Shown: positions 2,726 to 52,355 of the stretch, piece by piece
Layout of the letters: each line of letters begins with the position of its first letter
Numbering within the stretch: the first letter of the stretch is position 1
Assembly: GCA_026710905.1 (NCBI GenBank)
Contig: JAPOQD010000059.1
Coordinates: 2,021-66,020 of the forward strand
Source: Halieaceae bacterium
GTDB lineage: Bacteria > Pseudomonadota > Gammaproteobacteria > Pseudomonadales > Halieaceae
Reading direction: 5' to 3'
Length of the DNA: 64,000 bases
The notes under the pieces: generated by a model
The model's input: only the letters and a program-made list of their open reading frames with translations
Told to the model about the DNA's origin: nothing
Database searches by the model: none
Made by a program: the position numbers and the translations under genes

Positions 2726-2739
2726 TAGACATCTGTTAA
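2726..2739 (+). promoter_or_regulatory. candidate TetR-type operator, TAGACATCTGTTAA
   Basis: Lies in the divergent region between the SDR (start 2706, minus) and the NTF2-like gene (2829, plus). Followed by TTATATAATT, as at site 4443. Confidence 0.5.
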
Positions 2740-2828
2740 TTATATAATTACATGTTGCTTCAGTCTGTGTCAAATGCTAGGCTTCCCTGACGCAAACTGT
2801 TCGATGCAAGCGCGAGGAGGACATAAAA

Positions 2829-3335
2829 ATGCCTGGGGACGAACTTCACGTACTGGTCGATCGCAGTGAAATTAGCCAGATGATCTGCCGGCTGGCGCTG
2901 GGCATGGACCTGCGTGACCGGGAAATGTTCCAGTCCTGCTGGGCCGATGAGTTCTATCTATCGGTACCACCTCTGGCGGGCGACGCTGTGCCCTTGGAGG
3001 GCAATATGCGTGCCGAGGAGCACGCGCGCAACGTTATTGCGATGCTGTCCGAGTTCACCGCAACGCAGCACGTTCTGGCCAACCACCTGATCGATGTGGA
3101 GGGTGACACCGCAAACTGTTGCGCGTACCTGATTGGCACCCACACCCTGGCCGGCGTGGAGGACGGTGATCCTATCCAAACCATCGGTGCCCGCTATGAT
3201 TTCCAGTGCAACCGCACTCCTCAGGGGTGGAAGATCACCAATATGAAGTGGACCCGGTACTGGAGTACGGGCAACGGCGGCCTCTGGGATATTGTTGGTA
3301 AGCGGGTCGCGGCAAAGGCAGAAGCTGAGTCCTGA
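2829..3335 (+). CDS. NTF2/SnoaL-like fold protein
   Basis: 168 aa. The pattern LVDRSEISQMICRLALGMDLRD...W.DEF is typical of SnoaL_4/NTF2-like proteins. AGGAGG sits upstream of the ATG. Confidence 0.7.
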   Translation: MPGDELHVLVDRSEISQMICRLALGMDLRDREMFQSCWADEFYLSVPPLAGDAVPLEGNMRAEEHARNVIAMLSEFTATQHVLANHLIDVEGDTANCCAYLIGTHTLAGVEDGDPIQTIGARYDFQCNRTPQGWKITNMKWTRYWSTGNGGLWDIVGKRVAAKAEAES

Positions 3336-3557
3336 ATTGCTGGTGTGTTTCATCTACGTGTGAGGTAATTATGAGAGCCTGGAGATCCACGGTCAGCACC
3401 GATTTTTCGGGACTGAGCCTCACCGGGTGTTCCCCGCGCGCGCCCGCAAGAGGGGAGGCGCAGCTGCGGCTCAAGGCGGCAGCCCTCAATAGCGCGGGAT
3501 GATAATAGTGCTCGGAGCTTCCGAGCCTGTTAATTGCTCCAAATCAAGTATATAATC

Positions 3558-3571
3558 TAGACATGTGATGA
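3558..3571 (+). promoter_or_regulatory. candidate TetR-type operator, TAGACATGTGATGA (autoregulatory position)
   Basis: Immediately follows a TATAAT hexamer (3551-3556) and lies 47 nt upstream of the TetR gene start at 3618. Confidence 0.55.
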
Positions 3572-3617
3572 ATATTTCAACTTCACTGTCTGATCACCGC
3601 CAACAGGAGCAAGGATA

Positions 3618-4214
3618 ATGGCCGAAAAGCGTTCTTCCCTTCGCAGCCAGCAACGGGAGTTTACCCGGGCTCGCTTCATTGATGCTGGTCTGGAAACCTT
3701 CGAGGAAGTCGGCTTTCACGATGCGACCATCGATATGATTACCAAGCGGGCGGGGGCAAACCGTTCCACCTTTTACCTGCATTTCAAGGACAAGACCGAC
3801 CTGATGTTGGCCGCCAACGAGCGGATTTCTCCCGAGCGTAAGGATACCATGCGCATGATCAACGAAATGGATGACCCGAGTTTCAAGGTGTTCCGCGCCT
3901 GGATTGATCGCATGGCCAGAGATTGGGAGGAGGACCACAAGATCTACGAGGCAATCGTGCAGGCGCAGTTGACTGAGCCCAGCATCGCGCAGAAGAACTA
4001 CGAGGTCGTGTGTGATGACCTCACCGGTTACCTGTCCCGGTTCAAGGGTAAGAAACGCGATGAGGCTGCCAATCGGCTGCAGATGTTCATGATGCAGTTT
4101 GAAATGTTTTTCTACACCACCATCTGCGAGTGTGCCGAGACACCGTCGTCACTGGCCCTGGATACCCTGGCTGACCTGGGTCTTTACACGCTCTTTTACA
4201 AGACGCGGAATTGA
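3618..4214 (+). CDS. TetR/AcrR family transcriptional regulator (paralog A)
   Basis: 198 aa. N-terminal HTH FTRARFIDAGLETFEEVGFHDATIDMITKRAGANRSTFYLHFKDKTDL. Aligns end to end with the TetR at 13798-14388. Confidence 0.9.
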   Translation: MAEKRSSLRSQQREFTRARFIDAGLETFEEVGFHDATIDMITKRAGANRSTFYLHFKDKTDLMLAANERISPERKDTMRMINEMDDPSFKVFRAWIDRMARDWEEDHKIYEAIVQAQLTEPSIAQKNYEVVCDDLTGYLSRFKGKKRDEAANRLQMFMMQFEMFFYTTICECAETPSSLALDTLADLGLYTLFYKTRN

Positions 4215-4442
4215 ACTCCAGGGGGAAGTACCTTTCCCCACTTCAGAAACTGGAAGAAAAAGCCTGGTAGTAAGCGGCGAAGCGATCACGAATCTCGGTG
4301 TGGGAAGGACCGTAGCGCTTTAGGGAATACACATGATCGCCGTACTTCATCGCCGGGTTATCACGCTCCCATTGCACGCAAGACGCTGTCAGTAGATTGG
4401 TAGTAAGTACCGGGTAGGGCATTTCTTCTCTTCGCAATACGC

Positions 4443-4456
4443 TAGACATGTGTTGA
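4443..4456 (+). promoter_or_regulatory. candidate TetR-type operator, TAGACATGTGTTGA
   Basis: Upstream of the GST-like gene. The 16-mer TAGACATGTGTTGATT is identical to the one at 5772. The second half-site contains a -35-like TTGATT. Confidence 0.6.
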
Positions 4457-4516
4457 TTATATAATTCAGTGTATAATAAGTCGTTGTCAAGGGCACGTAC
4501 CAGGTCGAAGCCGACC

Positions 4517-5449: not shown

Positions 5450-5771
5450 ATCGCGGTGCCCGCGGTTGCAGCCCCAAGCCTTCCCGCGACCATGGCTGAG
5501 CATATTTAGATCTCACCGGCAAAGTGGCCTTCTCACTGAGAAGGAAGCCCGGTTGGCGGGCCAGGGCAATGAACTGGAATTTGCGCAGGCACCTTTCGAG
5601 GCCTGGATGGCAAGGCTCCACCATAGATCTGGGAATAAACGGTGGCAGCCAGGCGTTCTGAGTTCTTCAAAACGGTGCTATCTGGGGTCGACTAACGAGG
5701 TAGATCGCATCAGATTCACTCTAACCGTTAGATGCGTTGACAATGATTTCACGACCCGGTATTGTTTTAAG

Positions 5772-5785
5772 TAGACATGTGTTGA
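5772..5785 (+). promoter_or_regulatory. candidate TetR-type operator, TAGACATGTGTTGA
   Basis: Lies 65 nt upstream of the small ORF that precedes Rieske oxygenase 1. Same sequence as site 4443. Confidence 0.6.
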
Positions 5786-5849
5786 TTTACAGGATGTGCG
5801 TATTGTCTGGAAATATATCCTGCAAATTGCCGGTACAGGAGAGTGGTGC

Positions 5850-6179: not shown

Positions 6180-6196
6180 TAACGAGGAGAACCGCT

Positions 6197-8485: not shown

Positions 8486-8585
8486 GCGCTGTACTCGGTT
8501 GGGATACAGCAGGCAGGATGGACGTGCGGCTTGTTACAGCTTGCAGTTGGCTTGACAAAACAACAACGATCATATATCGTTTAAA

Positions 8586-8599
8586 ACAACATATGTCTA
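8586..8599 (-). promoter_or_regulatory. candidate TetR-type operator, plus-strand ACAACATATGTCTA (= TAGACATATGTTGT)
   Basis: In the 220-nt gap before the ferredoxin gene. The 18-mer AAAACAACATATGTCTAT is identical to the one at 14456-14473. Confidence 0.55.
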
Positions 8600-9995: not shown

Positions 9996-10871
9996 ATGCA
10001 AACGAGAACGATTACCTACTATAGCGATGGTGATGTGGTGGTCGGCGACCTGCACCTGCCGGACGACTTTGATGAACAGAAACAGTACCCGGTTATTCTG
10101 CAATGCCAGGGTTTTACCGGCATTCGCAAAATGGTGCAGCCGGTATTTGCTGAGTACTTCGTCAATGCCGGATTCCTGGCGCTCGCCATCGACTACCGCG
10201 GCTGGGGCGACAGCGGAGGTGAACGAGGCCGAATGGCGCCCTTCGAGCAGGTGGAGGACTGTCGCAACGGGTTTTCCTGGCTGGAGGCGCAACCCTTCGT
10301 TGACGACAATCGCATGGGCCAGTTCGGTGCCAGTTTCGGTGCATTGATCACCAGTTATACGATGGCCCTGGACAACCGCGTACAGGCTGGCGTGGCTACC
10401 GGTGGCGTCGCCGATGGTTACGAGGCCATTACCAACCAGCGCACCCCGGAACAGATGGCCGAGTGGGAAGCGAAAATGGCCGAGGCGCGGCGCAAGCGCG
10501 TTCTGACCAATGAGGTCGATCGCTGTTTGACTGTTCTTGATCTGTTCATTGATCCCGACAGCCGCTCATGGGAGCCGGAGATGTGGGAGGCCGTGCCCGC
10601 CTGGCACAACTGGATGGGTTTCGATTCCATGGCGCGGGTGGTGGATTTCCGGCCCATCGATGTGGCTCATCGTATCGATAATCCGATCGCCTACTTTCTC
10701 GCCGAGAAGGATATCGTGGGCGACCCGGACAGCTTTCGGGCACTGTACGAGGCCACCAAGGCCCCCAAGAAGCTCTACACTTATGACTGTGGCCACTACG
10801 ACTGGTACGAGGGTGAGTACCTTGACAAAACCATGAAGGATGCCAGTGAATTCTTTCTAGAGCACATTTAG
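9996..10871 (+). CDS. alpha/beta hydrolase
   Basis: 291 aa. Nucleophile elbow GASFG and a DYRGWGDSGG segment. Dienelactone-hydrolase-like architecture. Confidence 0.8.
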   Translation: MQTRTITYYSDGDVVVGDLHLPDDFDEQKQYPVILQCQGFTGIRKMVQPVFAEYFVNAGFLALAIDYRGWGDSGGERGRMAPFEQVEDCRNGFSWLEAQPFVDDNRMGQFGASFGALITSYTMALDNRVQAGVATGGVADGYEAITNQRTPEQMAEWEAKMAEARRKRVLTNEVDRCLTVLDLFIDPDSRSWEPEMWEAVPAWHNWMGFDSMARVVDFRPIDVAHRIDNPIAYFLAEKDIVGDPDSFRALYEATKAPKKLYTYDCGHYDWYEGEYLDKTMKDASEFFLEHI

Positions 10872-10889
10872 GCTTGGATACCAGGAGGA

Positions 10890-11315
10890 GTGGTGGTGAG
10901 TGAGCAACTGAGCAATGCGGAAATCACCCGCAAGGTCATCGACCTGGTTTCCAACTATGAATTCGACCAAATCGGCCCATATATTCACGAGGATATCGTG
11001 ATGGAGGCGCCTTACCAGGCGTTTTTCAATGGGCCCATGCGGCGTGGTAAGGACCTTTTCATGACGGGAATGGGTTTCGTTCCCGATGTTTTCAAGACAT
11101 TCGAGCTCAATATCCACGAGTTGTACGATTGCCCCGACCAGGATGTGGTCGTCTTCGAGCAGACCAGTATGGGTATCTTCGCCGCCAATGGCGGCGCCTA
11201 CCAGAACCGCTATATCATGGTGTTTGCTTTCCGGGATGGTCAAATCGTGCTTTGGCGGGAGTTTTTCAATCCCGAGATTATGAATGCCGGCATGCTGTTC
11301 ATGCTGGATGGATAG
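10890..11315 (+). CDS. NTF2/SnoaL-like (ketosteroid-isomerase-fold) protein
   Basis: 141 aa. AGGAGG SD. The C-terminal YQNRYIMVFAFRDGQIVLWREFFNP is shared with the paralog at 53511-53885 (YQNRYVFVFRFKGNKILRWREYLNP). Confidence 0.7.
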   Translation: MVVSEQLSNAEITRKVIDLVSNYEFDQIGPYIHEDIVMEAPYQAFFNGPMRRGKDLFMTGMGFVPDVFKTFELNIHELYDCPDQDVVVFEQTSMGIFAANGGAYQNRYIMVFAFRDGQIVLWREFFNPEIMNAGMLFMLDG

Positions 11316-11321
11316 CTCCTG

Positions 11322-12500
11322 GTGGCCGATGAGCTTCAGGACATACTGCAGGCGCATTTTTCAGCGCTCGAGGTTGCTGCCGATAATTTCTGCCTGAATT
11401 GGCCGGATGACGACGGTGAACGGCAGCTCCTCGAGGGCTTCAGACAGACGATACGGTTGGCGGGCGCCGGCCACCTGCTGCACCTTGAGGCGGAACCGGC
11501 CAACCCGCTGCTGATCAAGATGCAATCGCTGCTGCGACAGATGATGCTGCCCTCTGTGGACGCGGTCTACCACCACGCGCGGCTGCACGGTGACTACAGC
11601 TATCGCTTGCACGGCAATCGGGGGACGGCGCATGTCTTCCAGGTCGCAATCTACCAGGGCAGCAGTGCCAGGTACCCGGATTTTCAGCTCACTTATGATC
11701 TGGACAGTATTGACAGTGAATTGCTCGCAGCCGGGGAAGACATCGACTTCATCCTGAGTGCCGGCCCGAGGTCCGATCTGGGGGATCGCTGGATACCCAT
11801 ACCGGCGGCAGACAGCGAAATTCACATCAGGCAGTATTACTACGACTGGGATACGGAGCAACCAGGTAGCCTGATGATCGAGCGCGAGGGCTGCACGTAT
11901 CCTACCGCAACGACAGCTCCGGCGGACTTCCGGGACCGGATCGACCGGCTTAACAGTTGGATCGTGAACCAGTCGAATCTCGCCAGACAATATGTTCAAT
12001 CGTTCCTCGATGCCGATTCGGCCCACCTGCCGGCAATTTCCATTCCCGGCGCCTTCGAGGGCACCCGCTACCTGAACGGTCACTACCGTTGCGGGCCGGA
12101 TGAGGCAGTTATCCTGGAAGCACCTGTTCCCGATGCGCTGTACTGGGGATTTCAACTCAGCAACCTGTCCTGGGAAGCGCTGGATTACTACCAGCGCCAG
12201 ACATCTCTAAACGGCCACCAGGCATTGGTCGACGAGGACGGTGTGTTTCGGGCGGTAATCAGTCACCAGGACCCGGGTATTGCCAATTGGCTCGATGCAG
12301 GGGGCCGCACCCTGGGCCTGATATCGGGTCGCTACTTCAAGGCGCACACGGTCGAAGACCCACGCTTGAAACGGGTACCCCTCGCCGAACTCTCCGCGCA
12401 CCTGCCCGCCGCTACTGCCAGGGTGACACCCCGGCAGCGCTCGGATCAGTTGCGACAACGCCTGTGGTCAGCCCATCGACGTCAGTGCAGCGACCAGTGA
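11322..12500 (+). CDS. hypothetical protein (resembles DUF1214-type proteins from memory)
   Basis: 392-aa ORF, coding-like and tightly packed behind the previous gene. The YHHARLHGDYSYRLHGNRGTAHVFQVAIY...IHIRQYYYDWDTE pattern recalls the DUF1214 family. The family call is low confidence. Confidence 0.55.
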   Translation: MADELQDILQAHFSALEVAADNFCLNWPDDDGERQLLEGFRQTIRLAGAGHLLHLEAEPANPLLIKMQSLLRQMMLPSVDAVYHHARLHGDYSYRLHGNRGTAHVFQVAIYQGSSARYPDFQLTYDLDSIDSELLAAGEDIDFILSAGPRSDLGDRWIPIPAADSEIHIRQYYYDWDTEQPGSLMIEREGCTYPTATTAPADFRDRIDRLNSWIVNQSNLARQYVQSFLDADSAHLPAISIPGAFEGTRYLNGHYRCGPDEAVILEAPVPDALYWGFQLSNLSWEALDYYQRQTSLNGHQALVDEDGVFRAVISHQDPGIANWLDAGGRTLGLISGRYFKAHTVEDPRLKRVPLAELSAHLPAATARVTPRQRSDQLRQRLWSAHRRQCSDQ

Positions 12501-13158: not shown

Positions 13159-13345
13159 GAAGTTGTGCGCCAGTTCTGCAGCAGGGTCTCCCTTAGAGAC
13201 CCCACGGCAATAGCCAGTCTCCTGCACGATGATATTGAGTTCATGAACGTGGGGCTGGACAATAGACTGATGCCATAATGATCGTCGATCAGTCGGTCCT
13301 CACCGGCCGCAATGATGCAGTTCTTGCTCACGGCAAAAATTGTCT
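13159..13345 (+). pseudogene. SnoaL-like gene remnant
   Basis: A 39-codon frame, EVVRQFCSRVSLRDPTAIASLLHDDIEFMNVGLDNRLMP*, is a typical SnoaL N-terminus. A shifted frame continues MIVDQSVLTGRNDAVLAHGKN and then runs into the ferredoxin promoter. Confidence 0.4.
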
Positions 13346-13351
13346 ATATAA

Positions 13352-13365
13352 TAGACTGGTGTCTA
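13352..13365. promoter_or_regulatory. candidate TetR-type operator, TAGACTGGTGTCTA
   Basis: Near-perfect palindrome, preceded by TGTCTATATAATAGAC (13341-13356), which adds another half-site and a TATAAT box. Lies 54 nt upstream of ferredoxin 2. Confidence 0.55.
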
Positions 13366-13418: not shown

Positions 13419-13712
13419 TTGAGCAGTGATCAGGTCGTACCGGAGTCGGTTGTATTCTGTCGTGGCCGTGCGAAAACCCGGGTGGTGTATTATCGGGGGG
13501 AAACGCTATTGGAAACCGCCCGACGGTCTAATATCTCACTGTCGTCAAGTTGCGAAAACGGTGATTGCGGTACCTGCATGGTCGAACTGCTGAAGGGCCA
13601 GGTTTACATGCGGCAGAACAATGCACTGGATGAAACGGATCTTGAGCAGGGCAGTGTACTCGCTTGTCAGGCGGTACCCGTTTCCGACTCCATTGAGGTA
13701 GAAATCTACTGA
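13419..13712 (+). CDS. [2Fe-2S] ferredoxin, plant/oxygenase-reductase type
   Basis: 97 aa with a TTG start per the ORF track. Cluster motif SSCENGDCGTCMVELL...VLACQA. Confidence 0.8.
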   Translation: MSSDQVVPESVVFCRGRAKTRVVYYRGETLLETARRSNISLSSSCENGDCGTCMVELLKGQVYMRQNNALDETDLEQGSVLACQAVPVSDSIEVEIY

Positions 13713-13797: not shown

Positions 13798-14388
13798 TCA
13801 GGCTGTTCTGTTGAACAGCGCGTAGTAGCCAAGTTTCGCCAGGGAGTCCAGGACCGCTGGCCCGGGTTTGTTCAAGCTGACGCATATCGTCGTATAGAAA
13901 TACCGTTCGAACTGCATCAGGAACATTACCGCCCGGGAGGCACCGTCTTCCCGCTCCGTTGCCTTGAAGCGGTTGAGGTACGGGGTCAGGAACCCGAGCT
14001 TCTGATCGTAGGCGACCTTGGCGTAGCGTGGCTCGGTGAGCTGGGCGTACATGATAGCGCCATAGACTTCCCGATTATCTACCCACAACTGAGCCAGGAA
14101 ATCGATCCAGCGGCGGAACTCGACGTAATCTGGTTCGATCATGTTATTGATGCGCTCGAATACTGCGTCACCGCTGGGAACGAGTTGTTCATGGGCGGCC
14201 AGGAGCAGGTCAACCTTGTCCTTGAAATGCAGGTAGAACGTAGATCGATTGGCACCGGCATTGCGCGTGATCATGTCGATGGTAGCGTTTTCGAAGCCGA
14301 CCTCCTTGAACTCTTCCAGGGCTGCGTTGATAAAGCGGGCGCGGGTGAATTCCCTTTGCTGGTTGCGGAGTGACCCTGTGGTTTCCAT
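13798..14388 (-). CDS. TetR/AcrR family transcriptional regulator (paralog B)
   Basis: 196 aa. The HTH FTRARFINAALEEFKEVGFENATIDMITRNAGANRSTFYLHFKDKVDL is almost superimposable on paralog A. Confidence 0.9.
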   Translation of the reverse strand: METTGSLRNQQREFTRARFINAALEEFKEVGFENATIDMITRNAGANRSTFYLHFKDKVDLLLAAHEQLVPSGDAVFERINNMIEPDYVEFRRWIDFLAQLWVDNREVYGAIMYAQLTEPRYAKVAYDQKLGFLTPYLNRFKATEREDGASRAVMFLMQFERYFYTTICVSLNKPGPAVLDSLAKLGYYALFNRTA

Positions 14389-14457: not shown

Positions 14458-14471
14458 ACAACATATGTCTA
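14458..14471 (-). promoter_or_regulatory. candidate TetR-type operator, plus-strand ACAACATATGTCTA
   Basis: In the 99-nt divergent region between TetR paralog B (start 14388) and the SDR at 14488. Confidence 0.6.
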
Positions 14472-17508: not shown

Positions 17509-17591
17509 GTTTTGTCTCTGACCTTGTCTGATGCAAAGCAGTATCTACAATTAGATATTGACATAAGCTCATGAGACATGCAAACATAAAA

Positions 17592-17605
17592 ACAACAAGT
17601 GTCTA
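17592..17605 (-). promoter_or_regulatory. candidate TetR-type operator, plus-strand ACAACAAGTGTCTA
   Basis: In the divergent region between the P450 (start 17508) and the enoyl-CoA hydratase (17636). Confidence 0.55.
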
Positions 17606-23104: not shown

Positions 23105-23133
23105 TTGACATGAGTTTAAAACACATATATCGT
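23105..23133 (+). promoter_or_regulatory. sigma70-like promoter candidate for P450 copy 2
   Basis: TTGACA (23105-23110), a 17-nt spacer, then TATCGT (23128-23133). The predicted transcription start falls on the operator at 23139. Confidence 0.4.
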
Positions 23134-23138: not shown

Positions 23139-23152
23139 TCAACGCATGTCTA
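23139..23152 (-). promoter_or_regulatory. candidate TetR-type operator, plus-strand TCAACGCATGTCTA
   Basis: In the divergent region between the LLM oxidoreductase (start 23058) and the P450 (23178). Confidence 0.55.
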
Positions 23153-28240: not shown

Positions 28241-28254
28241 TAGACATCTGTTGA
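28241..28254 (+). promoter_or_regulatory. candidate TetR-type operator, TAGACATCTGTTGA
   Basis: Lies between the SDR/KstD-like operon (minus) and the BVMO (plus). The second half-site gives TTGACT as a -35 candidate. Confidence 0.6.
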
Positions 28255-31068: not shown

Positions 31069-31082
31069 TAGACAAATGATGT
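31069..31082 (+). promoter_or_regulatory. candidate operator, TAGACAAATGATGT (weaker second half)
   Basis: In the 349-nt region between the third TetR and LuxE-like 1. Confidence 0.4.
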
Positions 31083-32617: not shown

Positions 32618-32631
32618 ACGGAAGGGTACTG

Positions 32632-34083
32632 ATGGCAACGATTACCGGTGCGGCTTTCATTCGCGGAGAGATATACAGCGATAGTCTTGTCACTTTTGGT
32701 GGTCGAGGGGGTGATGCTTCATTTCTTGCGCCGGATCCGATGAGCCTGCTTGATCACCTACCCCTGCGTGACCCGGGTGCGCTTCGAGATCTTTATGAAC
32801 TCAAATTCGACGATATTGTTGATTATCTGGTCGAGCTGGGCGAGGGGCTTGATTTATCGAAAAACGAGTTCGTGCAGGAAGCGCTGGAGCATTCCTATTT
32901 GATGACGGATATGACGCCTCCGCTTCTCCATCGTCAGTACAGTGAATTCCGCCATATTTTCAGGAGGGAGTTCGTGCGACAGATGGCTGATGTGCCCATC
33001 GGCATACCCTTGCTTGAGGATTGGCAGGAAGTGCAGCTCAGTGATGGACGGCTGGCGTCGATTCGGGCGATGGGTGCGCGCTCACTCCACATCGTTGCGG
33101 GAAACAGTCCGTTTGTTACCGCAATCACCATTGTTCGCAATGCGATTACTCGCAGCGATGCGATCATCAAGCTACCCTCTAACGATCCATTGACAGCATT
33201 GGCGATCGCTCGAACCATGGCTGACTTCGCACCGGATCACCCGTTGACGAAGCATTTATCAGTCGCGTACTGGAAAGGCGGGACCGAAGAGTTCGAGCAG
33301 CGGCTTTATCTGCCCAGCAACCTGGAAAAGATTGTTGCCTGGGGAGGTTTCGCATCCCTGAAACATGTGACTCGATACATCCATCCGGGTTTGGAACTCA
33401 TCTCGCTGGACCCCAAGCGTAGTGCCACAGTGATCGGTCAAGAAGCATTTGCGAGCGAGGCATCGATGCGGGAGGTTGCACGCCGTGCTGCATCGGATAT
33501 GGGTTCTCTCAATCAGTTGGGCTGTACTGCCGCCAGGGTCATCTATGTGGCTTGCGGGACAGGCATTGAAGGTGTGGTAAAGCTGAACCACCTCGGAGAA
33601 ATGATCTATGAAGCATTACTGGGTCTGCCGGGGTCGATCAGCTCCAAACCGAAGCGGTTTGACCCTGAATTGCGGGATAACATCCGCGTGTTGAAATCCT
33701 TTGAAGACTACTACACGGTCATTGGCGGCGAGGAGGACGAAGGCGCCGTCATAGTCTCTCATGCAGGTGAGCCCGTCGATTTTCATACTTCGCTGGCGGG
33801 CCGTGTCGCGAACCTGGTCCCGATAGACAAGCCACTGGACGCCCTCAGGGGAATGAGTGCCTATACACAGACAATCGGTATCTATCCTGAAGCGCTGAAG
33901 AGCGAACTACGGGATATTCTGCCGTTATACGGCGCCCAGCGGATGGTTTCCCTGGGTTATGCGAACACCGGCAATTCCTCGCTACCGCAGGATGCCATCG
34001 AGCCGACGCGACGGATGTGCAAGTGGATTGTTGACGAATCCTGTGATCCGGCGCGTATCCCTGCTCCCTGGCTGGAGAATTAG
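32632..34083 (+). CDS. LuxC-like acyl-CoA/acyl-protein reductase (copy 1)
   Basis: 483 aa. HIVAGNSPFVTAITIVRNAITRSDAIIKLPSNDPLTALAIARTMADFAPDHPLTKHLSVAYWKGG...IVAWGGFASLKHV...LISLDPKRS follows the LuxC consensus closely. Candidate catalytic Cys in NQLGCTAARVIYV. Confidence 0.8.
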   Translation: MATITGAAFIRGEIYSDSLVTFGGRGGDASFLAPDPMSLLDHLPLRDPGALRDLYELKFDDIVDYLVELGEGLDLSKNEFVQEALEHSYLMTDMTPPLLHRQYSEFRHIFRREFVRQMADVPIGIPLLEDWQEVQLSDGRLASIRAMGARSLHIVAGNSPFVTAITIVRNAITRSDAIIKLPSNDPLTALAIARTMADFAPDHPLTKHLSVAYWKGGTEEFEQRLYLPSNLEKIVAWGGFASLKHVTRYIHPGLELISLDPKRSATVIGQEAFASEASMREVARRAASDMGSLNQLGCTAARVIYVACGTGIEGVVKLNHLGEMIYEALLGLPGSISSKPKRFDPELRDNIRVLKSFEDYYTVIGGEEDEGAVIVSHAGEPVDFHTSLAGRVANLVPIDKPLDALRGMSAYTQTIGIYPEALKSELRDILPLYGAQRMVSLGYANTGNSSLPQDAIEPTRRMCKWIVDESCDPARIPAPWLEN

Positions 34084-35876: not shown

Positions 35877-35890
35877 TAGACATTTGTTGA
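35877..35890 (+). promoter_or_regulatory. candidate TetR-type operator, TAGACATTTGTTGA
   Basis: Lies 123 nt upstream of the TonB-dependent receptor start. Followed by TTTATATTGT. Confidence 0.55.
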
Positions 35891-38581: not shown

Positions 38582-40012
38582 ATGACCAGTTCAGTTGATT
38601 TGCGACGGGCACGCCAATTGGCGGATGATCCGGGGGTTTTTTTCGAAGGGAATTACACAAAGATGCAATCGATCGCCTGGGAGGATCTTTCAAAATTGCA
38701 TCTTGAGGCACTGAAAATCCGTTTTGAGGAAAAACGTGATGCAATTCCCATGCTTGAAAAACTGTCGAATCAGGCAAAGGTCGATACTCTCTCCACTATC
38801 GACGATGTTGTTCCTGTTCTGTTTGATCACACCACTTACAAGTCATACCCCAATGCACTTCTCGATTCAGGCCGATTTGACCAACTGACTCGCTGGTTGG
38901 ACAAGCTCACGACGCACGACCTGTCGGATGTGGACGCTTCGCATTGTGACAATATAGACAGTTGGATGGATGCCCTTGATAAACAGACCGACCTGAAAGT
39001 TGGCCACAGTTCCGGATCCACAGGCACCATGTCTTTCCTGCCTCGAGGCGCCGAGGAGTTGGACAAGTACATCAGGAACATGAAGATAGAGCTGTTCCAG
39101 GAATTTGGCAGCGATGAGGTCGTTCAGGACGAACCGCTCAATCTTCATGTGATCTATCCGTTTTTCAGACACGGCGCAAGTTCTCATATTCGGGCTCTCG
39201 AGTTCTGGGTGAAGCACTTTGCGGGGGATGAGGAGCGTTTGCACGTGCTTTATCCCAGAAGAATGAGCTCGGATGTGATGTATCTTTCTGCACGTATTCA
39301 GGCAGCCGCTGCGCGAGGCAATCTCGACAGCGTCAAACTCAGTGACGAGATGCGGGAGAGAATGAACGAGTTTCACAAACTGCAGAAAGAACTTCCCCAG
39401 TTACTGGAGAAGTATGTGGAAAATGAACTCAAGTCCTTTGCAGGTGAGCGTGTGTTGGCCACCGGCCCTTGGACGATCAACTGGGACATGGCCAAGATCG
39501 GCCTGGAGCGGGGAATGCGTAACATGTACAGCCCCGACTCGGTAGTATTGACAGGCGGCGGTACCAAGGGGCGTGAAGTACCGGAGGACTGGCGGGAGCC
39601 TATACGCGAATTCATCGGCTCCCGCCGTATTCAAGCCATGTATGGCATGACAGAGTGTATGGGGTCACACCTGCTGTGTGAGCACGAGAAGTACCATATT
39701 GCGCCTTGGATTATTCCTTATGTACTCGATCCCGACACCTGTACCCCGCTGCCAAGAACCGGCAGAGTTACCGGTCGTGCTGCGTTCTTTGACCTGACGG
39801 CGGAGGTGCTGTGGGGGGGGTTCATCACTGGCGACGAGGTCACGATAAACTGGGCCGCAAATTGCCCCTGTGGTAGAACCAGCCCCTATTTCGATTACAA
39901 GATTCAGCGCTACAAAGACATCAAAGGGGACGACAAAATCACCTGTGCCGCCAGTGCGGAGGCCCACGAAGAGGCCCTCAGTTTCCTGAACAGTTTTGGC
40001 ACAGGACGCTAG
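38582..40012 (+). CDS. LuxE-like acyl-protein synthetase / PaaK-like adenylate-forming enzyme (copy 2)
   Basis: 476 aa. HSSGSTGTMSF, TGGGTKG, YGMTECMGS, HIAPWIIPYVLDPDT..PLPRTG and CPCGRTSP. Paralog of 31205-32617. Confidence 0.75.
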   Translation: MTSSVDLRRARQLADDPGVFFEGNYTKMQSIAWEDLSKLHLEALKIRFEEKRDAIPMLEKLSNQAKVDTLSTIDDVVPVLFDHTTYKSYPNALLDSGRFDQLTRWLDKLTTHDLSDVDASHCDNIDSWMDALDKQTDLKVGHSSGSTGTMSFLPRGAEELDKYIRNMKIELFQEFGSDEVVQDEPLNLHVIYPFFRHGASSHIRALEFWVKHFAGDEERLHVLYPRRMSSDVMYLSARIQAAAARGNLDSVKLSDEMRERMNEFHKLQKELPQLLEKYVENELKSFAGERVLATGPWTINWDMAKIGLERGMRNMYSPDSVVLTGGGTKGREVPEDWREPIREFIGSRRIQAMYGMTECMGSHLLCEHEKYHIAPWIIPYVLDPDTCTPLPRTGRVTGRAAFFDLTAEVLWGGFITGDEVTINWAANCPCGRTSPYFDYKIQRYKDIKGDDKITCAASAEAHEEALSFLNSFGTGR

Positions 40013-40022
40013 GGGTACGAGT

Positions 40023-41495
40023 ATGAATACGGCAATTGCGCCGATGGTGATCCGCGGTAAGATCATTGAAGAGAATCTCATCGAGTTTGGTGGGCGGGCC
40101 CAAGGCTTCGTCTTCCGATCGCCTGATCCGCACGCCTACGTCGAAGAAATTGGTCTGACCAGCCCCGATGCACTGGCTGACCTCTATCAGCTCAGCTTTA
40201 CCGATATACTGGATTATCTGGAGGAACTCGGACAACGGCTGGTTCTCGAAGACAACCAGCATCTGCAACAGGCGTTCGAAGCGGCCTGCGCGACGGCGGC
40301 CATGACTCCCCCGTTATTGCGTGTTCAGTACGCTTCGATTCCGGCATTCCTTGGCAATCGAAAAGCGCTCATCGAGTCCGCGGAACAATCGATTGGAATT
40401 GCACACCTGGAAGGATGGGTGGAGGGATCAACCTGCACGGGGCATGCAACGCGCATACGCGCATTTGGCGCGCGGACCGTGCACGTCATTGCGGGTAATG
40501 CACCCTTACTGTCTGCCATGACGGTGGCGCGCAATGCAATGTTGCGCAGCGATGCAATCATTAAGCCGCCCTCTAATGACCCGCTGACTGCAGCTGCCAT
40601 CGGGCGCCAGATGGTGGAAATGGCGCCTGATCATCCGCTCACCAGGCATCTTTCGGTCGCTTACTGGAAGGGTGGCGACGAGGCCTTTGAAAGCAGGCTA
40701 TACCAACCCCGGAACGTGGAGAAAATCATCGCCTGGGGTGGCTTCGCGTCTGTGAAACACGTTACCAGATATATTCAACCCGGGTTGGAACTGATCTCGC
40801 TGGATCCGAAGAGCAGCGCTAGCATAATCGGCCCAGAGGCATTCGCCAGTGAAGAGACTCTTGCTGACGTTGCCCAGAAAGTAGCCGCCGATGTGGGGCT
40901 ACATAATCAACAAGGCTGTGTCAATGCGCGCGTGGTATATGTGTTATCCGGCACGGACGAACAAGGAATCAATCAATTGGAACGGTTGGGCAGGCTGGTC
41001 TATGAAAAGATCCAACAACTCAATCCGCAATTGAGCACCGTGGCGGAGCGGTACAGCCCAGAATTGAAAGCCCACGTCGATACGCTGAAGCTCGATGATG
41101 ATTGGTATTCCGTGATCGGGGGAGAGGACAAAGAGGGGGCCATCATTGTCTCCAGGCTTCCCGCACCTGTCGATTTCTCCGCTGCCCTGTGTGATCGCAC
41201 CGCTAACCTCGTGCCCATTGACTGCCTGGACGAGGCAATTGCGTTCGTGGATGCCTACACCCAGACTGTTGGCATCTACCCGGAAGCCTTAAAGCAGGAT
41301 CTGATGGACATACTGCCGCTTCATGGAGCGCAGCGGATTGTCTCACTGGGATATGCCACCCAGATGTCAAATGCCGCACCGCACGACGGACTGGAGCCGA
41401 TGCGGCGCATGTGCAAGTGGATTTTGGAAGAAAGTGCCGACCCGAGCACGGTGCCCCCATTCTGGAGCACGGCAGGTTTCAGCGGGACTATATGA
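40023..41495 (+). CDS. LuxC-like acyl-CoA/acyl-protein reductase (copy 2)
   Basis: HVIAGNAPLLSAMTVARNAMLRSDAIIKPPSNDPLTAAAIGRQMVEMAPDHPLTRHLSVAYWKGG...IIAWGGFASVKHV...LISLDPKSS and NQQGCVNARVVYV. Start taken at MNTAIAPMVIRGK. Confidence 0.8.
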   Translation: MNTAIAPMVIRGKIIEENLIEFGGRAQGFVFRSPDPHAYVEEIGLTSPDALADLYQLSFTDILDYLEELGQRLVLEDNQHLQQAFEAACATAAMTPPLLRVQYASIPAFLGNRKALIESAEQSIGIAHLEGWVEGSTCTGHATRIRAFGARTVHVIAGNAPLLSAMTVARNAMLRSDAIIKPPSNDPLTAAAIGRQMVEMAPDHPLTRHLSVAYWKGGDEAFESRLYQPRNVEKIIAWGGFASVKHVTRYIQPGLELISLDPKSSASIIGPEAFASEETLADVAQKVAADVGLHNQQGCVNARVVYVLSGTDEQGINQLERLGRLVYEKIQQLNPQLSTVAERYSPELKAHVDTLKLDDDWYSVIGGEDKEGAIIVSRLPAPVDFSAALCDRTANLVPIDCLDEAIAFVDAYTQTVGIYPEALKQDLMDILPLHGAQRIVSLGYATQMSNAAPHDGLEPMRRMCKWILEESADPSTVPPFWSTAGFSGTI

Positions 41496-42612: not shown

Positions 42613-43821
42613 ATGGCGGTAGCCCTCGATGGCGTAAGAGTGATAGAGCTGGGGCAGGAGATCCAGGGCCCCTATGCCACCCTGTTCCTGGCCGACATGG
42701 GCGCCGATGTGATTAAGGTGGAGAATCGTGAGGGCGGCGACCTGGCCCGGCAGATGACGGTGGGTCGCATTGCTGGCGAGGAGCTGCCCCACGGGGATTT
42801 CCAGCAGTATTTTTTCCTGCTGAACCGCGGCAAACGCAGCCTCACACTGGACCTCAAGCAGGAGCAAGGCAAGGAAATCCTGCTGCGCCTGCTGGACAGC
42901 GCCGACGTGCTGCTGACCAATTTCCGCCCCGGGGTGCTCGAACGGTTGGGCTTTTCCTACGACGACTTGTGTGAGCAATTTCCACGCCTGATCCATGCCA
43001 CCGCTTCTTCCTGGGGTCCGAAAGGGCCCTGGGCGACCCGGCCCAGCCGCGACATGCTGGCCCAGGCAGCGGCAGGCATCATGACCAAGACGGGTATGGA
43101 AGATCAGCCGCCGTTGCCCGCGGGTTTCGTTGCCGGCGACTATTCTGGAGCGGTATTCGCTGCCATGGGGATTCTCGCGGCGCTCTATGCCCGAGAGCAG
43201 ACCGGCAGTGGCCAGAAAGTGGATACTTCCATGTACGGCGCCCTGCTCGCGCTGCAACCCTGGGAGCTGATCCAGGCCTCGATTACAGGCAGGTAAAATC
43301 GCCGCGCCGGCCGCGGCCACCAGTTTCTGAACGGAGCCTGGGGCGCGTTCCAGACCAGCGACGGCTGGATCGCCATCGCCGGTATTGAAGACAGCCGCTG
43401 GCCCGGGTTCTGCGAGGCAATCAACCGCCCGGATCTGGTTGACGATCCCGACTACGACAAGGACAGCCGAAATTTCGCCGGGGAGCGGATTCACCAACTG
43501 CTGGACGAGGTGCTGTTGCAGCGCACCACCGATGAGTGGCTGGAATTGTTCCTGGCAGCGGACCTGTTTGTTACCGCCGTGGCTGATTACGACGACGTGC
43601 TCAATAGCGAGCAGGCCCTGGAGAACGGCTACATACGCTGGGCTGAGCATCCAGAGGTGGGTCGTTTCAAGATGGTAGGCCCCCCCGTCACGCTCAGTGA
43701 AACCCCCTTTGCCGAGGTGAAGCCCGCCCCGGTACTGGGTGAGCACACTGATGAGGTTTTGCGGGAACTTGGTTTCGATGAGGAGGCCATTGCCAAGCTG
43801 AAACAGTCTGGCATTGTCTGA
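42613..43821 (+). pseudogene. family III CoA-transferase (CaiB/BaiF type) interrupted by one in-frame TAA
   Basis: ORFs 42613-43296 and 43510-43821 are in the same frame. The only interruption is TAA at 43294-43296, and the frame is open from 43297 onward. It reads ...ITGR*NRRAGRGHQFLNGAWGAFQTSDGWIAIAGIEDSRWPGFCEAINRPDLVDDP..., which continues the family pattern. N-terminal LDGVRVIELGQEIQGPYATLFLADMGADVIKVE. Confidence 0.8.
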
Positions 43822-44750: not shown

Positions 44751-44802
44751 TTCTGCTTCCCATCTCTTCGGCTCTCGTATAATATGTCACATATCTATAT
44801 AA

Positions 44803-44816
44803 TAGACAAACATCTA
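44803..44816 (+). promoter_or_regulatory. candidate operator, TAGACAAACATCTA
   Basis: In the divergent region between the SDR (start 44750) and the BKACE gene (44833). Preceded by TATATAA, as at other sites. Confidence 0.45.
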
Positions 44817-48021: not shown

Positions 48022-48106
48022 TGCGTGCGCTCGGTTGCTGTATTGACCGATCGGACCGCCACCGGTTTTTGCTTGATAGCTGGAATGTTAACATGTATCT
48101 TATAAA

Positions 48107-48120
48107 ACGACTAGCGTCTA
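48107..48120 (-). promoter_or_regulatory. variant operator candidate, plus-strand ACGACTAGCGTCTA (= TAGACGCTAGTCGT)
   Basis: Lies 86 nt upstream of the PQQ dehydrogenase start (minus strand). Shares TAGACGCTAG with 31088-31101. Confidence 0.35.
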
Positions 48121-48136
48121 TTAAAGACCTTGAAGT

Positions 48137-48366: not shown

Positions 48367-48369
48367 TCC

Positions 48370-49275: not shown

Positions 49276-49303
49276 ATCTCCTGGACACAGCGGGTTAACG
49301 CTA

Positions 49304-50899
49304 ATGTCGGGATTACTCGAGCACGCGCGTATATCGCCGGAACAGGTTGCCTTTGCTATCGGCAACAACGAATTTGTCGAAACTTACGGTCAGTTGGAGC
49401 AGCGCTCGCGCCGGGTCGCCCACTGGTTGCGATCGCTGGGCCTGCAGCGAGGTGATAGCGTCGCCATCCTGTTGGGCAATGTCGAGCAGTTCTTCGATAT
49501 CTACTGGGCAACACAACGGATCGGTTTGTTCCTCACCCCCATCAACTGGCACCTGGGTACCGCCGAGGTTGAACACATTGTGGACAACTGTGGTGCTGAC
49601 TTATTGTTCGCGTCAGTCGCTACGGCCGACACCGCTGCCCCGGTAGCGGCCACACTGGCTAATCGCGTCGCGCGCTTCGTCTCGGTTGGGGGAGAGATTC
49701 CGGGCTATTCGAGCCTGGAGCGGGCGCTGCCCGGGATGCCTGAAGACATACCGTTACAGGACCAGCAGCCGGGCTCAGTGATGATCTACTCTTCCGGCAC
49801 CACCGGGCAACCCAAGGGCATCCGCAAACCGCTTCCCGACTGTGGTCTCGAGGACGAAGCCTTGTGGGAGGCGCAAACGCGTTTTATACGCCTGTTTGGA
49901 TTCCGCCCGGGCGACCGCTACCTGTGTCCGGCACCTCTCTACCACGCCGCCCCGATACGTTCCTGCGCCGCCATGCACTGTCTGGGGGGAACCGTGCACG
50001 TGATGCGCCGCTTCGATGCGGAGGAGGCCCTGCGGATCATTGCCGGTCAACAGATTCAGGTATCCCAGTGGGTGCCCACCCATTTCAAGCGCTTGCTGAC
50101 CCTGCCGGAGAGCGTGCGCCAGGGTTACGATGTGTCCAGCCTCAGGGTTGCGGTGCACGCCGCGGCGCCCTGCCCGCCACCACTTAAGCGGGCCATGATC
50201 GAGTGGTGGGGCGAAATCCTGACTGAGTACTACGCCGGTACCGAGGGGGGCGGCACTGTGATCGATTCCGCTGAATGGCTGGCCCACCCGGGGTCTGTTG
50301 GCCGGCCCTGGCAGGGCGTGGACCTGGGCATCCTGGACGGCGCCTTGCAACCGGTGACCTCGCCGCGTGAGCCGGGCGCGGTCTATTTCCGCGACAAGCT
50401 GGCAGGCAAGTTCGTCTACCATGGGGACGAGGAAAAAACCGCGGGGGTTTATCGCGGCGACTGGTTTACGCTCGGGGATATCGGCTACCTGGATGAAGAG
50501 GGGTACCTGTACCTGACCGATCGCCAGTCGAATCTGATCATCTCGGGTGGCGTCAACATTTATCCCCAGGAGGCTGAAAACTGCCTGCTGTCCCACCCCA
50601 AGGTTCTCGATGTGGCGGTGTTCGGCATTCCCTGCGAAGAAATGGGTGAGGCGGTACATGCCGTCATCATCCCCGCCCCGGGCTATCAGGCTGATGACGC
50701 CCTGCGGCGGGAGCTGGTTGCCTGGTGTCGAGAGCACATTGCCCATTACAAGGCGCCCAGATCCATCGATTTCGTCGATGAGTTACCCCGCACCGAGACC
50801 GGAAAACTCTTGAAGAGAAAGTTGCGGGCTGTGGTGGGGGAAGGCCGCGCCGAACTACTGGCTGCTGTTGCCGCACCGCCGTTTGGGGAGAACTCCTGA
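49304..50899 (+). CDS. AMP-dependent synthetase/ligase (acyl-CoA synthetase)
   Basis: Start at MSGLLEHARISPEQVAF. MIYSSGTTGQPKGI, GYLDEEGYLYLTDR and ETGKLLKRKLR. Confidence 0.9.
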   Translation: MSGLLEHARISPEQVAFAIGNNEFVETYGQLEQRSRRVAHWLRSLGLQRGDSVAILLGNVEQFFDIYWATQRIGLFLTPINWHLGTAEVEHIVDNCGADLLFASVATADTAAPVAATLANRVARFVSVGGEIPGYSSLERALPGMPEDIPLQDQQPGSVMIYSSGTTGQPKGIRKPLPDCGLEDEALWEAQTRFIRLFGFRPGDRYLCPAPLYHAAPIRSCAAMHCLGGTVHVMRRFDAEEALRIIAGQQIQVSQWVPTHFKRLLTLPESVRQGYDVSSLRVAVHAAAPCPPPLKRAMIEWWGEILTEYYAGTEGGGTVIDSAEWLAHPGSVGRPWQGVDLGILDGALQPVTSPREPGAVYFRDKLAGKFVYHGDEEKTAGVYRGDWFTLGDIGYLDEEGYLYLTDRQSNLIISGGVNIYPQEAENCLLSHPKVLDVAVFGIPCEEMGEAVHAVIIPAPGYQADDALRRELVAWCREHIAHYKAPRSIDFVDELPRTETGKLLKRKLRAVVGEGRAELLAAVAAPPFGENS

Positions 50900-50930
50900 A
50901 CCATTACGCCAGGCAAAGGGATCCGGAATA

Positions 50931-52145
50931 ATGAACGAATTCCGCAGCGGATGGCGCCTTCTCCTGGCGGGGCTGCTGGGTAACGCTCTGGGTGTGGGCG
51001 CGATCCTGTTTTACAGCATGTCCTCCTTCATGGTGCCCCTGGAGCAGGAATTCGGCTGGACCCGCACCGAGATGGGTGGCGCGATCAGCTGCCTGATGTT
51101 TGGCTGGATTCTGGTTATGCCGCTGCTGGGGCGAATCTGTGACCGCTACGGGCCCCGCAAACCGATCCTGATCTCGATTCCGCTACTGGCCCTGTTCATG
51201 GCCGGGCTGTCCCGGCTGCAGGGGGAACTGATGCTGCTCTACGGCCTGTTCACCGCCAGCGCCGTGTTTGGCAGCGGCACCCTGGGCGTGACCTATATCG
51301 CCGCGGTGTCGAAGCGCTTCGATCGGCACCGCGGCCTGGCTTACGGTATCACCCTGGCCGGCACGGGCATCAGTGCTTTTGTGCTGCCAATCGTGTTGAA
51401 TGAGCTGATCGGGGATTACGGTTGGCGCGTCGCCTGGCTGGTGCTCGCCGGGGTGGTCTTGTGCCAGTTTCCAATTGTCTGGCTGTGGATCCGCGACAAA
51501 GACGCAGCCACCGCTGGAACGATGCCTGCTGCCACTCCTGACTCTGTCGCTGGTCTTTCCCTCGGCGAGGTGCTGCGCGTGCGCGCGTTCTGGCTGCTGT
51601 CCTCCGCGTTCCTGCTGGTAGCCCTGGTGATGGCTGGCCTGTTGATTAACCTCATTCCCCTGTTACGGGAGATCGGGCTCAGCCCCCAGGCTGCGGCTTC
51701 CACCTCCGCCGGTGTGGGTATTGGCCTGTTGTTTGCCCGGGTTGCGGTCGGATTCCTGCTGGACCGCTTCCAGGCCCGCTACGTGGCGGTGGCCGCGTTC
51801 GGGGTGGCGGCGCTGGGCTGTCTGCTGCTGGCGGGGCAGCGTACCGAATTCGCGACATTCGCGGTGTTTGCCCTGGGCTTTACCTCGGGCGCCGAGTTGG
51901 ACCTGCTCGCCTATATGAGCGCGCGTTATTTCGGCCTGCGCGCCCACGCCACCGTGTATTCCATCGGCCTGAGTATCTTCTACTTCGGGGCCGTGCTTGC
52001 GCCCCTGCTGGTGGGTGGCCTGTACGACTACGTGGGGGACTATACTCTGGCCCTGGAACTCACGATCCTGTGCTGTATTGCCGCCAGCGTGCTGATCCTG
52101 CTGATGGGGCCCTATCCCAGGTTCGAACCGCCAACGGGTCATTGA
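50931..52145 (+). CDS. MFS transporter
   Basis: Start at MNEFRSGWRLLLAGLL. About 12 hydrophobic segments. GRICDRYGPRK loop motif between TM2 and TM3. Confidence 0.88.
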   Translation: MNEFRSGWRLLLAGLLGNALGVGAILFYSMSSFMVPLEQEFGWTRTEMGGAISCLMFGWILVMPLLGRICDRYGPRKPILISIPLLALFMAGLSRLQGELMLLYGLFTASAVFGSGTLGVTYIAAVSKRFDRHRGLAYGITLAGTGISAFVLPIVLNELIGDYGWRVAWLVLAGVVLCQFPIVWLWIRDKDAATAGTMPAATPDSVAGLSLGEVLRVRAFWLLSSAFLLVALVMAGLLINLIPLLREIGLSPQAAASTSAGVGIGLLFARVAVGFLLDRFQARYVAVAAFGVAALGCLLLAGQRTEFATFAVFALGFTSGAELDLLAYMSARYFGLRAHATVYSIGLSIFYFGAVLAPLLVGGLYDYVGDYTLALELTILCCIAASVLILLMGPYPRFEPPTGH

Positions 52146-52290
52146 GCGGTACAGTCGTCTCTCTTACCCACTTCGGCAAGGCCTCCTGGCGTTTACCCGG
52201 CTTCACCAGATCGAGCCAGTGTTGATCAGGCATTGTTCGCTTCCACGGCAAGAGTGATTGACAGTCGTCGTGATGACATATATCGTTATA

Positions 52291-52304
52291 ATAGACAATT
52301 GTCT
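52291..52304. promoter_or_regulatory. candidate TetR-type operator, perfect palindrome TAGACAATTGTCTA
   Basis: Overlaps TATAAT (52286-52291). A second adjacent site, ATACTATGTGTCTA, lies at 52304-52317. Lies 52 nt upstream of the VOC gene. Confidence 0.6.
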
Positions 52305-52355
52305 ATACTATGTGTCTATCATGCGTTACGCCAGCCCGCTAGAGGGGACCTCTGA

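Follow-up and report, generated by a model that had tools for sequence, protein, structure and literature searches.

A 14-bp inverted repeat as the predicted operator of a small TetR-repressor clade in an oxygenase-rich island of a Halieaceae bacterium

KstR (Rv3574) of Mycobacterium and Rhodococcus is a TetR-family repressor of cholesterol catabolism that is autoregulated and binds as a dimer to the box TAGAAC-N2-GTTCTA (PMC1995591). This motif has 16 predicted intergenic instances in M. tuberculosis and 31 in M. smegmatis, many of them between divergent genes, with two copies in one gap and a site that overlaps the -10 element (PMC1995591). Here, we analyzed a 64,000-nucleotide stretch of a Halieaceae bacterium (assembly GCA_026710905.1, contig JAPOQD010000059.1), referred to as the window, in which a 14-bp near-palindrome, TAGACA-NN-TGT(C/T)(T/G)A, recurs in front of catabolic genes. 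We believe, with good confidence, that this 14-mer is probably the operator of a small, uncharacterized clade of TetR repressors, represented in the window by two proteins termed TetR-A and TetR-B.

The likeness to KstR is extensive. Both boxes are 14-bp 6-2-6 palindromes with the same outer bases (TAGAAC-NN-GTTCTA compared to TAGACA-NN-TGTCTA). Both systems have a TetR gene with a site in its own promoter and many intergenic sites, some of them doubled, that overlap promoters (predicted ones here), and in both the targets are lipid catabolic genes rich in oxygenases, dehydrogenases, and CoA enzymes. However, the KstR operator core is TnnAACnnGTTnnA as opposed to TAGACAnnTGTCTA here, so that AAC/GTT is replaced by ACA/TGT. 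The repressors are also not orthologous, with KstR (3mnl) ranking 17th in Foldseek at 16% identity and a template modeling (TM) score of ~0.6. Nor was KstR among the 60 best PDB sequence matches, which span only the helix-turn-helix. In addition, the host is a gammaproteobacterium, and the motif seems to be common to two paralogous repressors. The present system resembles the KstR regulon in design and is not a member of it. An earlier reading of the window made without database searches (the sequence-only reading) had compared the motif to the KstR box as alike in architecture and different in sequence, which is accurate against the published box (PMC1995591). It had also not recognized the motif as a described operator, and none of the 14-mers was found in the literature that we searched, the coverage of which was incomplete.

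CamR, known from camDCAB and camphor on the CAM plasmid of Pseudomonas putida, and AtuR, known from acyclic terpene utilization, are TetR-family repressors of terpenoid catabolism. In the camphor system, as in the window, a TetR gene lies beside genes for a P450, a [2Fe-2S] ferredoxin, a short-chain dehydrogenase/reductase (SDR), luciferase-like and flavin Baeyer-Villiger monooxygenases, and a CoA ligase. Another likeness is that the CamR and AtuR operators are placed in overlapping or divergent promoters. CamR has one operator region compared to ~15 in the present island, and neither protein has a detectable specific sequence relationship to TetR-A/B. The acyl-CoA-responsive TetR proteins (FadR of Bacillus and Thermus, FasR, DesT, and PsrA) are among the best structural matches and control multi-operator lipid-catabolism regulons. 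Their ligands are CoA thioesters, and by analogy such a ligand would be plausible here because the predicted regulon has two CoA ligases, a CoA transferase, and an enoyl-CoA hydratase. However, the identities to these proteins are only 15 to 20%, the TM scores are 0.5 to 0.65, and the NCBIfam scores are far below the cut-offs. The PsrA box, C/GAAAC-N2-4-GTTTG/C, is unlike the present motif.

Distribution of the 14-bp motif

The window contains 13 strong and two weaker (31069 and 48107) sites. All 15 are intergenic, while intergenic DNA makes up 12.2% of the window according to a gene map of Pfam-supported calls on long open reading frames (ORFs), which underlies the intergenic/coding split throughout. 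Scanning for the degenerate pattern TAGACANNTGTYKA gave six matches over both strands, representing five positions since the palindrome at 52292 counts twice, and no matches in 100 dinucleotide-preserving shuffles. In an unbiased census of all hexamers, TAGACA/TGTCTA showed the highest intergenic over-representation (17 seen versus 3.5 expected; z = 7.2), with only seven copies in the 56 kb of coding DNA. The usual form of the motif in the window has one degenerate half, (T/A)(C/A)AACA, and conserved AT-rich flanks (TAWAA).

To avoid circularity, we trained a position weight matrix (PWM) solely on 24 sites of divergent relatives and then ran it on the window. All 14 matches of at least 14 bits were intergenic, as were 16 of the 17 of at least 12 bits. 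At a threshold of at least 10 bits, 19 matches were seen compared to a mean of 1.3 in shuffled intergenic DNA. The sole coding-region match of at least 12 bits, TAGACAACTCTTGA at 55189 (13.1 bits), lies inside a cholesterol-oxidase-like gene and is probably due to chance. Matches are concentrated in intergenic DNA, as the sequence-only reading had anticipated for a scan of this kind.

The region from 1.9 to 53 kb has 23 promoter-capable intergenic gaps of at least 40 bp, and a site is present in 15 of them. Within this cluster, sites were found in all divergent gaps (8/8) and in no convergent gap (0/6). Outside this range, the scan of the window found a site in none of the eight gaps. The motif delimits a bounded island and not the entire window.

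All 13 strong sites listed by the sequence-only reading were found as written, with a single coordinate to correct, as the perfect palindrome starts at 52292 and not at 52291. Its statement that every site is intergenic is true for the listed sites. That most lie in divergent promoter regions was overstated (6 of 13 strong sites and 8 of all 15), but all eight divergent gaps of the cluster are indeed occupied. Among its weak copies, 31069 stands (16.2 bits), the one at 52304/52305 counts as a weak second copy with 11.4 bits, and 63713 scores below 8 bits and is dropped. The weak site at 48107 was absent from that list, and its promoter architecture matches that of the strong sites.

A repeat search that was blind to the motif returned the sites as the top repeat families D1 (seven copies, 34 nt), D2, D4, and D10. 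With sites contained in 34-nt repeat families, one could propose that they derive from a small mobile or repetitive element (similar to repetitive extragenic palindromes or miniature inverted-repeat transposable elements). One could also propose an RNA-level hairpin of the 5' leader, as the palindromic sites at 13352 and 52292 can fold to hairpins of -8.4 and -5.5 kcal/mol. However, the similarity between copies ends within ~30 to 48 nt and is only 62 to 79%, and the copies lack defined ends, with neither terminal repeats nor target duplications. They also occupy orthologous promoter positions despite diverged flanking DNA. As for RNA, 9 of 13 sites have no stable fold (0 to -1.8 kcal/mol), which is no better than shuffles. 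We therefore regard a repetitive-element or hairpin origin as extremely improbable.

Candidate repressors and their co-occurrence with the motif

TetR-A and TetR-B are paralogs with 55% identity over their full length and near-identical N-terminal DNA-binding regions. The predicted recognition-helix motif NRSTFYLHFKDK (N-R-S-T-F-Y-L-H-F-K-D-K) was invariant in 24 of 24 aligned family members. For both genes, the own promoter region carries a site (3558 for TetR-A and 14458 for TetR-B). In an 87% relative (L004), a TetR-A-type gene (162-755) and a TetR-B-type gene (1128-1715) stand in adjacent tandem, with sites upstream of the first and between the two. This arrangement suggests that the pair arose by tandem duplication.

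The family is tiny. A search of 5.8 billion proteins returned only 31 members, and a search of 1.84 billion gave only three 50%-identity cluster representatives at E < 1e-30, followed by a sharp fall to ~36% identity. The AlphaFold2 model of TetR-A (predicted local distance difference test score of 89) is all-helical with the standard two-domain TetR fold. All 50 of the PDB matches listed by Foldseek were TetR-family proteins, of which the nearest had TM scores of 0.5 to 0.65 at 15 to 20% identity, and the top structures included the acyl-CoA sensors FadR of B. halodurans (rank 1), FasR, SaFadR-DNA, and DesT-DNA. Sequence matches in PDB and NCBIfam cover little past the N-terminal DNA-binding region. 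The NCBIfam scores were far under the family cut-offs (e.g., 26.7 versus 300 bits for PsrA and 33 versus 200 for FadR). Since the PDB, NCBIfam, and Foldseek similarities are only generic, no ligand can be assigned from them.

Orthologs of 50 to 98% identity were found only in metagenome-assembled genomes (MAGs), classified as Pseudomonadales, Halieaceae, Candidatus Azophilus, Alteromonadaceae, and unclassified Gammaproteobacteria or Pseudomonadota. The motif recurs in nearly all of the ortholog loci, and most have an intergenic PWM match upstream of the TetR gene, usually 43 to 46 nt before the start codon. When we aligned the 120 nt upstream of 13 TetR orthologs (61 to 98% protein identity), TAGAC was the only invariant block. 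Distant relatives have a perfect TAGACATATGTCTA with symmetric TAAA/TTTA flanks. This symmetry implies that the AT-rich flank would be part of the operator and not merely a -10 box. In the five loci with gene calls (L001, L002, L003, L044, and L046), every match of at least 12 bits was intergenic. These matches precede Fer2, P450, TonB-receptor, glyoxalase, SDR, BKACE-side, and TetR genes. In L002 and L011, the orthologous Fer2/SDR gap also holds the 19-bp tandem described below. The prediction that the motif would be conserved upstream of orthologous genes was thus borne out, in that it recurs in intergenic DNA before the same types of genes. The hit density was 0.18 per kb in relatives compared to ~0.05 per kb in 29 unrelated TetR loci from the same search, where the hits were mostly in AT-rich genomes.

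For the reverse test, the query was a conserved enzyme of the island, a 291-amino-acid hydrolase (9996-10871). Homologs with 51 to 62% identity were found in clearly homologous catabolic clusters, one of them in the cultured Sinimarinibacterium flocculans. These clusters (L047, which is the S. flocculans contig, L048, and L049) include BKACE, pyrroloquinoline quinone (PQQ) alcohol dehydrogenase (PQQ-ADH), luciferase-like monooxygenase (LLM), Abhydrolase_3, CoA ligase, Rieske, two Fer2, SnoaL, SDR, Baeyer-Villiger monooxygenase (BVMO), and P450 genes. They use a different, longer TetR of ~250 amino acids (TetR_C_24 type). In the three loci, there was no TetR-A/B homolog and essentially no motif (0 to 1 marginal match per 20 kb). 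Judged from these comparisons, the motif follows the TetR-A/B clade rather than the enzymes, which is the strongest computational argument for the identity of the binder. The three clusters also exemplify a conserved pathway whose regulator has been replaced, and the pathway could be studied in S. flocculans, which is cultured.

The 14-mer might instead be a real operator with another binder: a third TetR-like ORF (TetR-C), an AraC-type (56183-57322) or LysR-type (58753-59682) regulator, or a factor encoded outside the window. Binding by TetR-A/B is only predicted, and the window does encode these three further regulators. However, the motif-bearing loci of the relatives have no homolog of any of the three, and their own promoters in the window lack a strong site. 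The AraC and LysR genes reside beyond 53 kb, in a part of the window without sites. Near TetR-C, there is only the weak site at 31069, whereas nearly all of the relatives examined have a site upstream of their TetR-A/B ortholog. Another binder is, in our view, quite unlikely compared to TetR-A and TetR-B.

TetR-C (30178-30855, - strand, 225 amino acids) had been missed by the sequence-only reading. Its Pfam TetR_N score of 20.7 bits is below the cut-off, but its PDB matches carry, with few exceptions, the annotation of a TetR-family or generic transcriptional regulator. It is unrelated to TetR-A/B, lies in a low-GC stretch (51.5%), and is divergent from a LuxE-like/LuxC/FAD operon. TetR-C probably has its own operator.

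Predicted promoters at the sites

All operators and promoters described here are sequence predictions, and the promoters were obtained from a sigma-70 consensus scan of 60 kb. When the sites were aligned with TGTCTA as the 3' half, conservation spanned ~30 nt, with the pattern ACAt-tATCnT-tATAA-(T/A)(C/A)AACAnATGTCTA-t. Six sites, when aligned in one orientation, share a perfect TTGACA at a distance of exactly 28 nt 5' of the 14-mer. Six of the ten best sigma-70-like matches in the 60 kb (10/12 positions) end 4 to 6 nt ahead of a site, and 8 of 15 sites are positioned 4 to 6 nt after a predicted -10 element. At this distance, the site would cover roughly -3 to +12, i.e., the predicted start point. 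TetR orthologs other than TetR-A have a -10-like hexamer (TACATT) that ends 3 nt before TAGACA. The sequence-only reading had placed a TTGACA-17-TATCGT promoter ahead of the operator at 23139, and our scan recovered it. Its proposal that the TGTTGA half supplies a -35 element is unsupported, as the recognizable promoters stand upstream of the site.

A weaker second copy accompanies many sites, 19 bp toward the promoter and over the -10 element. The mean matrix score at this offset was -5 compared to about -20 at other offsets, and clear 19-bp tandems are found at 44784/44803 and 48088/48107. This predicted spacing suggests two dimers per promoter.

The orientation of the sites differs. The TAGACA half faces the promoter at 5772, while the degenerate half does so at 8586 and most others. 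A dimeric protein would allow both orientations relative to the promoter, whereas a directional promoter element would not. The latter deserves consideration, since the block keeps a fixed distance to TTGACA and -10-like hexamers, and the adjoining TAWAA reads TATAAT in several sites; it could be part of the core promoter, recognized by an alternative sigma factor or serving as an unusual discriminator or initial-transcribed sequence. Besides orientation, the perfect palindrome with symmetric flanks in divergent relatives speaks against such an element. The two blocks are only 2 nt apart and not 16 to 18 nt as in two-block promoters of the sigma-70 family, including those of extracytoplasmic function sigma factors. 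The motif is also absent from housekeeping promoters of the relatives (L003 1-7000), from the window beyond 53 kb, and from the homologous clusters with another TetR. We consider a core promoter element very improbable.

Several points weigh against an operator for TetR-A and TetR-B. Because the relatives were retrieved via the TetR gene, there is some circularity in the forward co-occurrence; the reverse test alone is independent, with three loci as its basis. The second half of the autoregulatory sites is poorly conserved in the alignment of ortholog upstream regions. Finally, a recognizable upstream -35/-10 pair was found at only 8 of 15 sites, and these promoters are consensus predictions. 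Taken together, we nevertheless favor TetR-A and TetR-B as the predicted binders. Table 1 lists the sites together with the predicted promoters and the two candidate repressor genes.

Table 1. Coordinates in the window of predicted operator sites, predicted promoters, and candidate repressor genes
Feature	Position	Strand	Sequence or score	Context
Operator site	2726..2739		TAGACATCTGTTAA; 19.5 bits (PWM of relatives)	Divergent gap SDR (1909-2706, -) / SnoaL_4 (2829-3335, +)
Operator site	3558..3571		TAGACATGTGATGA	TetR-A promoter, 46 nt before ATG; one base (C3557) after TATAAT (3551-3556)
Operator site	4443..4456		TAGACATGTGTTGA	Upstream of glutathione S-transferase-like gene; also served by leftward promoter 4490-4461
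Operator site	5772..5785		TAGACATGTGTTGA	6 nt past promoter 5737-5765; before unknown-127aa/Rieske oxygenase genes; TAGACA half first
Operator site	8586..8599		ACAACATATGTCTA	5 nt past promoter 8552-8580; before Fer2-SDR-hydrolase-SnoaL operon
Operator site	13352..13365		TAGACTGGTGTCTA	Before Fer2 gene (13419-13712); extra TGTCTA half-site at 13341
Operator site	14458..14471		ACAACATATGTCTA	Divergent gap TetR-B (-) / SDR (14488, +); kept in L044, locus of 93% TetR-B ortholog
Operator site	17592..17605		ACAACAAGTGTCTA	Divergent gap P450 (-) / enoyl-CoA hydratase (+); TTGACA at 17558-17563, poor -10
Operator site	23139..23152		TCAACGCATGTCTA	5 nt past promoter 23105-23133; divergent gap LLM (-) / P450 (+)
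Operator site	28241..28254		TAGACATCTGTTGA	Divergent gap SDR/FAD_binding_2 (-) / BVMO (+)
Weaker site	31069..31082		TAGACAAATGATGT; 16.2 bits	Divergent gap third TetR-like ORF (-) / LuxE-like/LuxC/FAD operon (+)
Operator site	35877..35890		TAGACATTTGTTGA	Before TonB-dependent receptor gene
Tandem pair, 19 bp apart	44784..44816		Weak 44784; TAGACAAACATCTA at 44803	Divergent gap SDR (-) / BKACE (+)
Weak tandem pair	48088..48120		48088; ACGACTAGCGTCTA at 48107	5 nt past promoter 48073-48101; divergent gap PQQ-ADH (-) / Abhydrolase_3 (+)
Perfect palindrome	52292..52318		TAGACAATTGTCTA; weak second copy at 52305	5 nt past promoter 52258-52286; before glyoxalase-cupin-SnoaL genes
Predicted promoter	5737-5765	+	TTGACA-17-TATTGT	Serves 5772
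Predicted promoter	8552-8580	+	TTGACA-17-TATCGT	Serves 8586
Predicted promoter	23105-23133	+	TTGACA-17-TATCGT	Serves 23139
Predicted promoter	52258-52286	+	TTGACA-17-TATCGT	Serves 52292
Predicted promoter	2773-2744	-	TTGACA-18-AATTAT	Serves 2726; ends 4 nt before site
Predicted promoter	4490-4461	-	TTGACA-18-AATTAT	Serves 4443
Predicted promoter	48073-48101	+	TTGATA-17-TATCTT; 9/12 match	5 nt ahead of weak site 48107
TetR-A gene	3618..4214	+	198 aa; Pfam TetR_N PF00440 1.2e-13, above cut-off	
TetR-B gene	13798..14388	-	196 aa; Pfam TetR_N PF00440 7.9e-13, above cut-off	

Predicted regulon and proposed regulation

The predicted targets comprise ~15 transcription units with roughly 45 genes between 1.9 and 53.9 kb, a size that applies to the 50-kb island alone and not to the whole genome. 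They encode several SDRs, two P450s, two Rieske oxygenase alpha subunits with Ring_hydroxyl_A domains, two [2Fe-2S] ferredoxins, a PtlE-like BVMO, an LLM, and two KstD-like PRK07121 flavoproteins. CoA and aldehyde chemistry is represented by an enoyl-CoA hydratase, two CoA ligases, a split CoA-transferase, two LuxE-like/LuxC pairs, an aldo-keto reductase, BKACE, a PQQ alcohol dehydrogenase, and steryl-acetyl-hydrolase-like esterases. SnoaL-like proteins, glyoxalase-fold proteins, a TonB-dependent receptor, and a major facilitator superfamily (MFS) transporter complete the set. Core to the sequence-only reading was one operator common to many promoters of a large local TetR-type regulon, and the position of the sites, the regulators, the conservation, and the co-occurrence all support this claim.

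The predicted enzyme set points to the oxidation of an alicyclic lipid of the terpenoid or steroid type. The KstD-like FAD_binding_2 proteins match NCBIfam PRK07121-type models and not KstD equivalogs. None of the markers of the 9,10-seco steroid pathway (KshA, HsaA-D, and KstD) was recognized in Pfam and NCBIfam scans, which did not include pathway-specific models. Steroid degradation in sponges and seawater is established for related lineages (Halieaceae and Cellvibrionales) (PMC5790920). A regulator of such a cluster was not mentioned in the literature that we read.

In the mechanism that we propose, a repressor dimer would bind TAGACA-NN-TGTCTA, and bound at approximately -3 to +12, it would block open-complex formation or promoter escape. 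Where the second copy lies 19 bp upstream, two dimers could be bound per promoter. TetR-A and TetR-B would both be autoregulated because each gene carries a site. A substrate or intermediate of the pathway, most likely a compound of the terpenoid- or steroid-like class or the corresponding CoA thioester, would bind the C-terminal domain and relieve repression, and this release would switch on the ~15 transcription units. We can further speculate that the two paralogs, whose predicted recognition helices are identical, act on a common set of operators, either as homodimers or possibly as heterodimers. The terpenoid/sterol-type island of ~45 genes in these uncultured marine Gammaproteobacteria (Pseudomonadales as defined by GTDB, with Halieaceae-type lineages among them) would then be gated by two different ligands through the same sites. 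It would be an independent gammaproteobacterial functional analogue of the actinobacterial KstR/KstR2 system that converged on a TAGA...TCTA 6-2-6 box. We offer this extended model tentatively and consider it rather unlikely.

We also noted several features of the island and its edges. The cholesterol-oxidase-like gene (54390-56297, - strand; Chol_subst-bind, 2e-100) lies just outside the site-bearing region, beside an AraC/DJ-1 regulator. The family III CoA-transferase is split between two frames (+ strand), with 214 of the 366 profile positions (N-terminal) at 42613-43296 and 78 (C-terminal) at 43510-43821; this is a frameshift, a pseudogene, or an assembly error. The module of a LuxE-like adenylating enzyme and a LuxC acyl-CoA reductase is duplicated (31205-34083 and 38582-41495), with a DNA similarity of 71 to 78% (repeat families D5 and D8), and one copy follows the TonB-dependent receptor gene. 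A third KstD-like FAD_binding_2 gene (61337-61858, + strand) is truncated after ~170 amino acids and followed by an AbiEi antitoxin-like gene (62175-62978), a junction that looks like an island edge or an insertion.

Near the other end, in L003 (TetR 98% identical), an intact sulfotransferase gene (10626-11798) lies under the leftward TTGACA-18-AATTAT promoter/operator that corresponds to window positions 4443-4490. The window has a sulfotransferase remnant here (4215-4425, - strand), of which only the first ~50 to 70 nt still align to the L003 gene, and at 3-1526 a sulfotransferase ORF is fused in frame to a Mutator-transposase fragment. The remnant and the fused ORF suggest local rearrangement.

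The new elements here are the operator and the regulon prediction. The design of a TetR repressor with many operators in a catabolic island is well known, and no new mechanism is proposed. If confirmed, the prediction would map the regulon of a large oxygenase island that otherwise lacks annotation and belongs to marine Gammaproteobacteria known only from MAGs. The motif could be used to delimit pathway genes in metagenomes, and the repressor/operator pair may serve as a biosensor or as a handle on the identity of the substrate.

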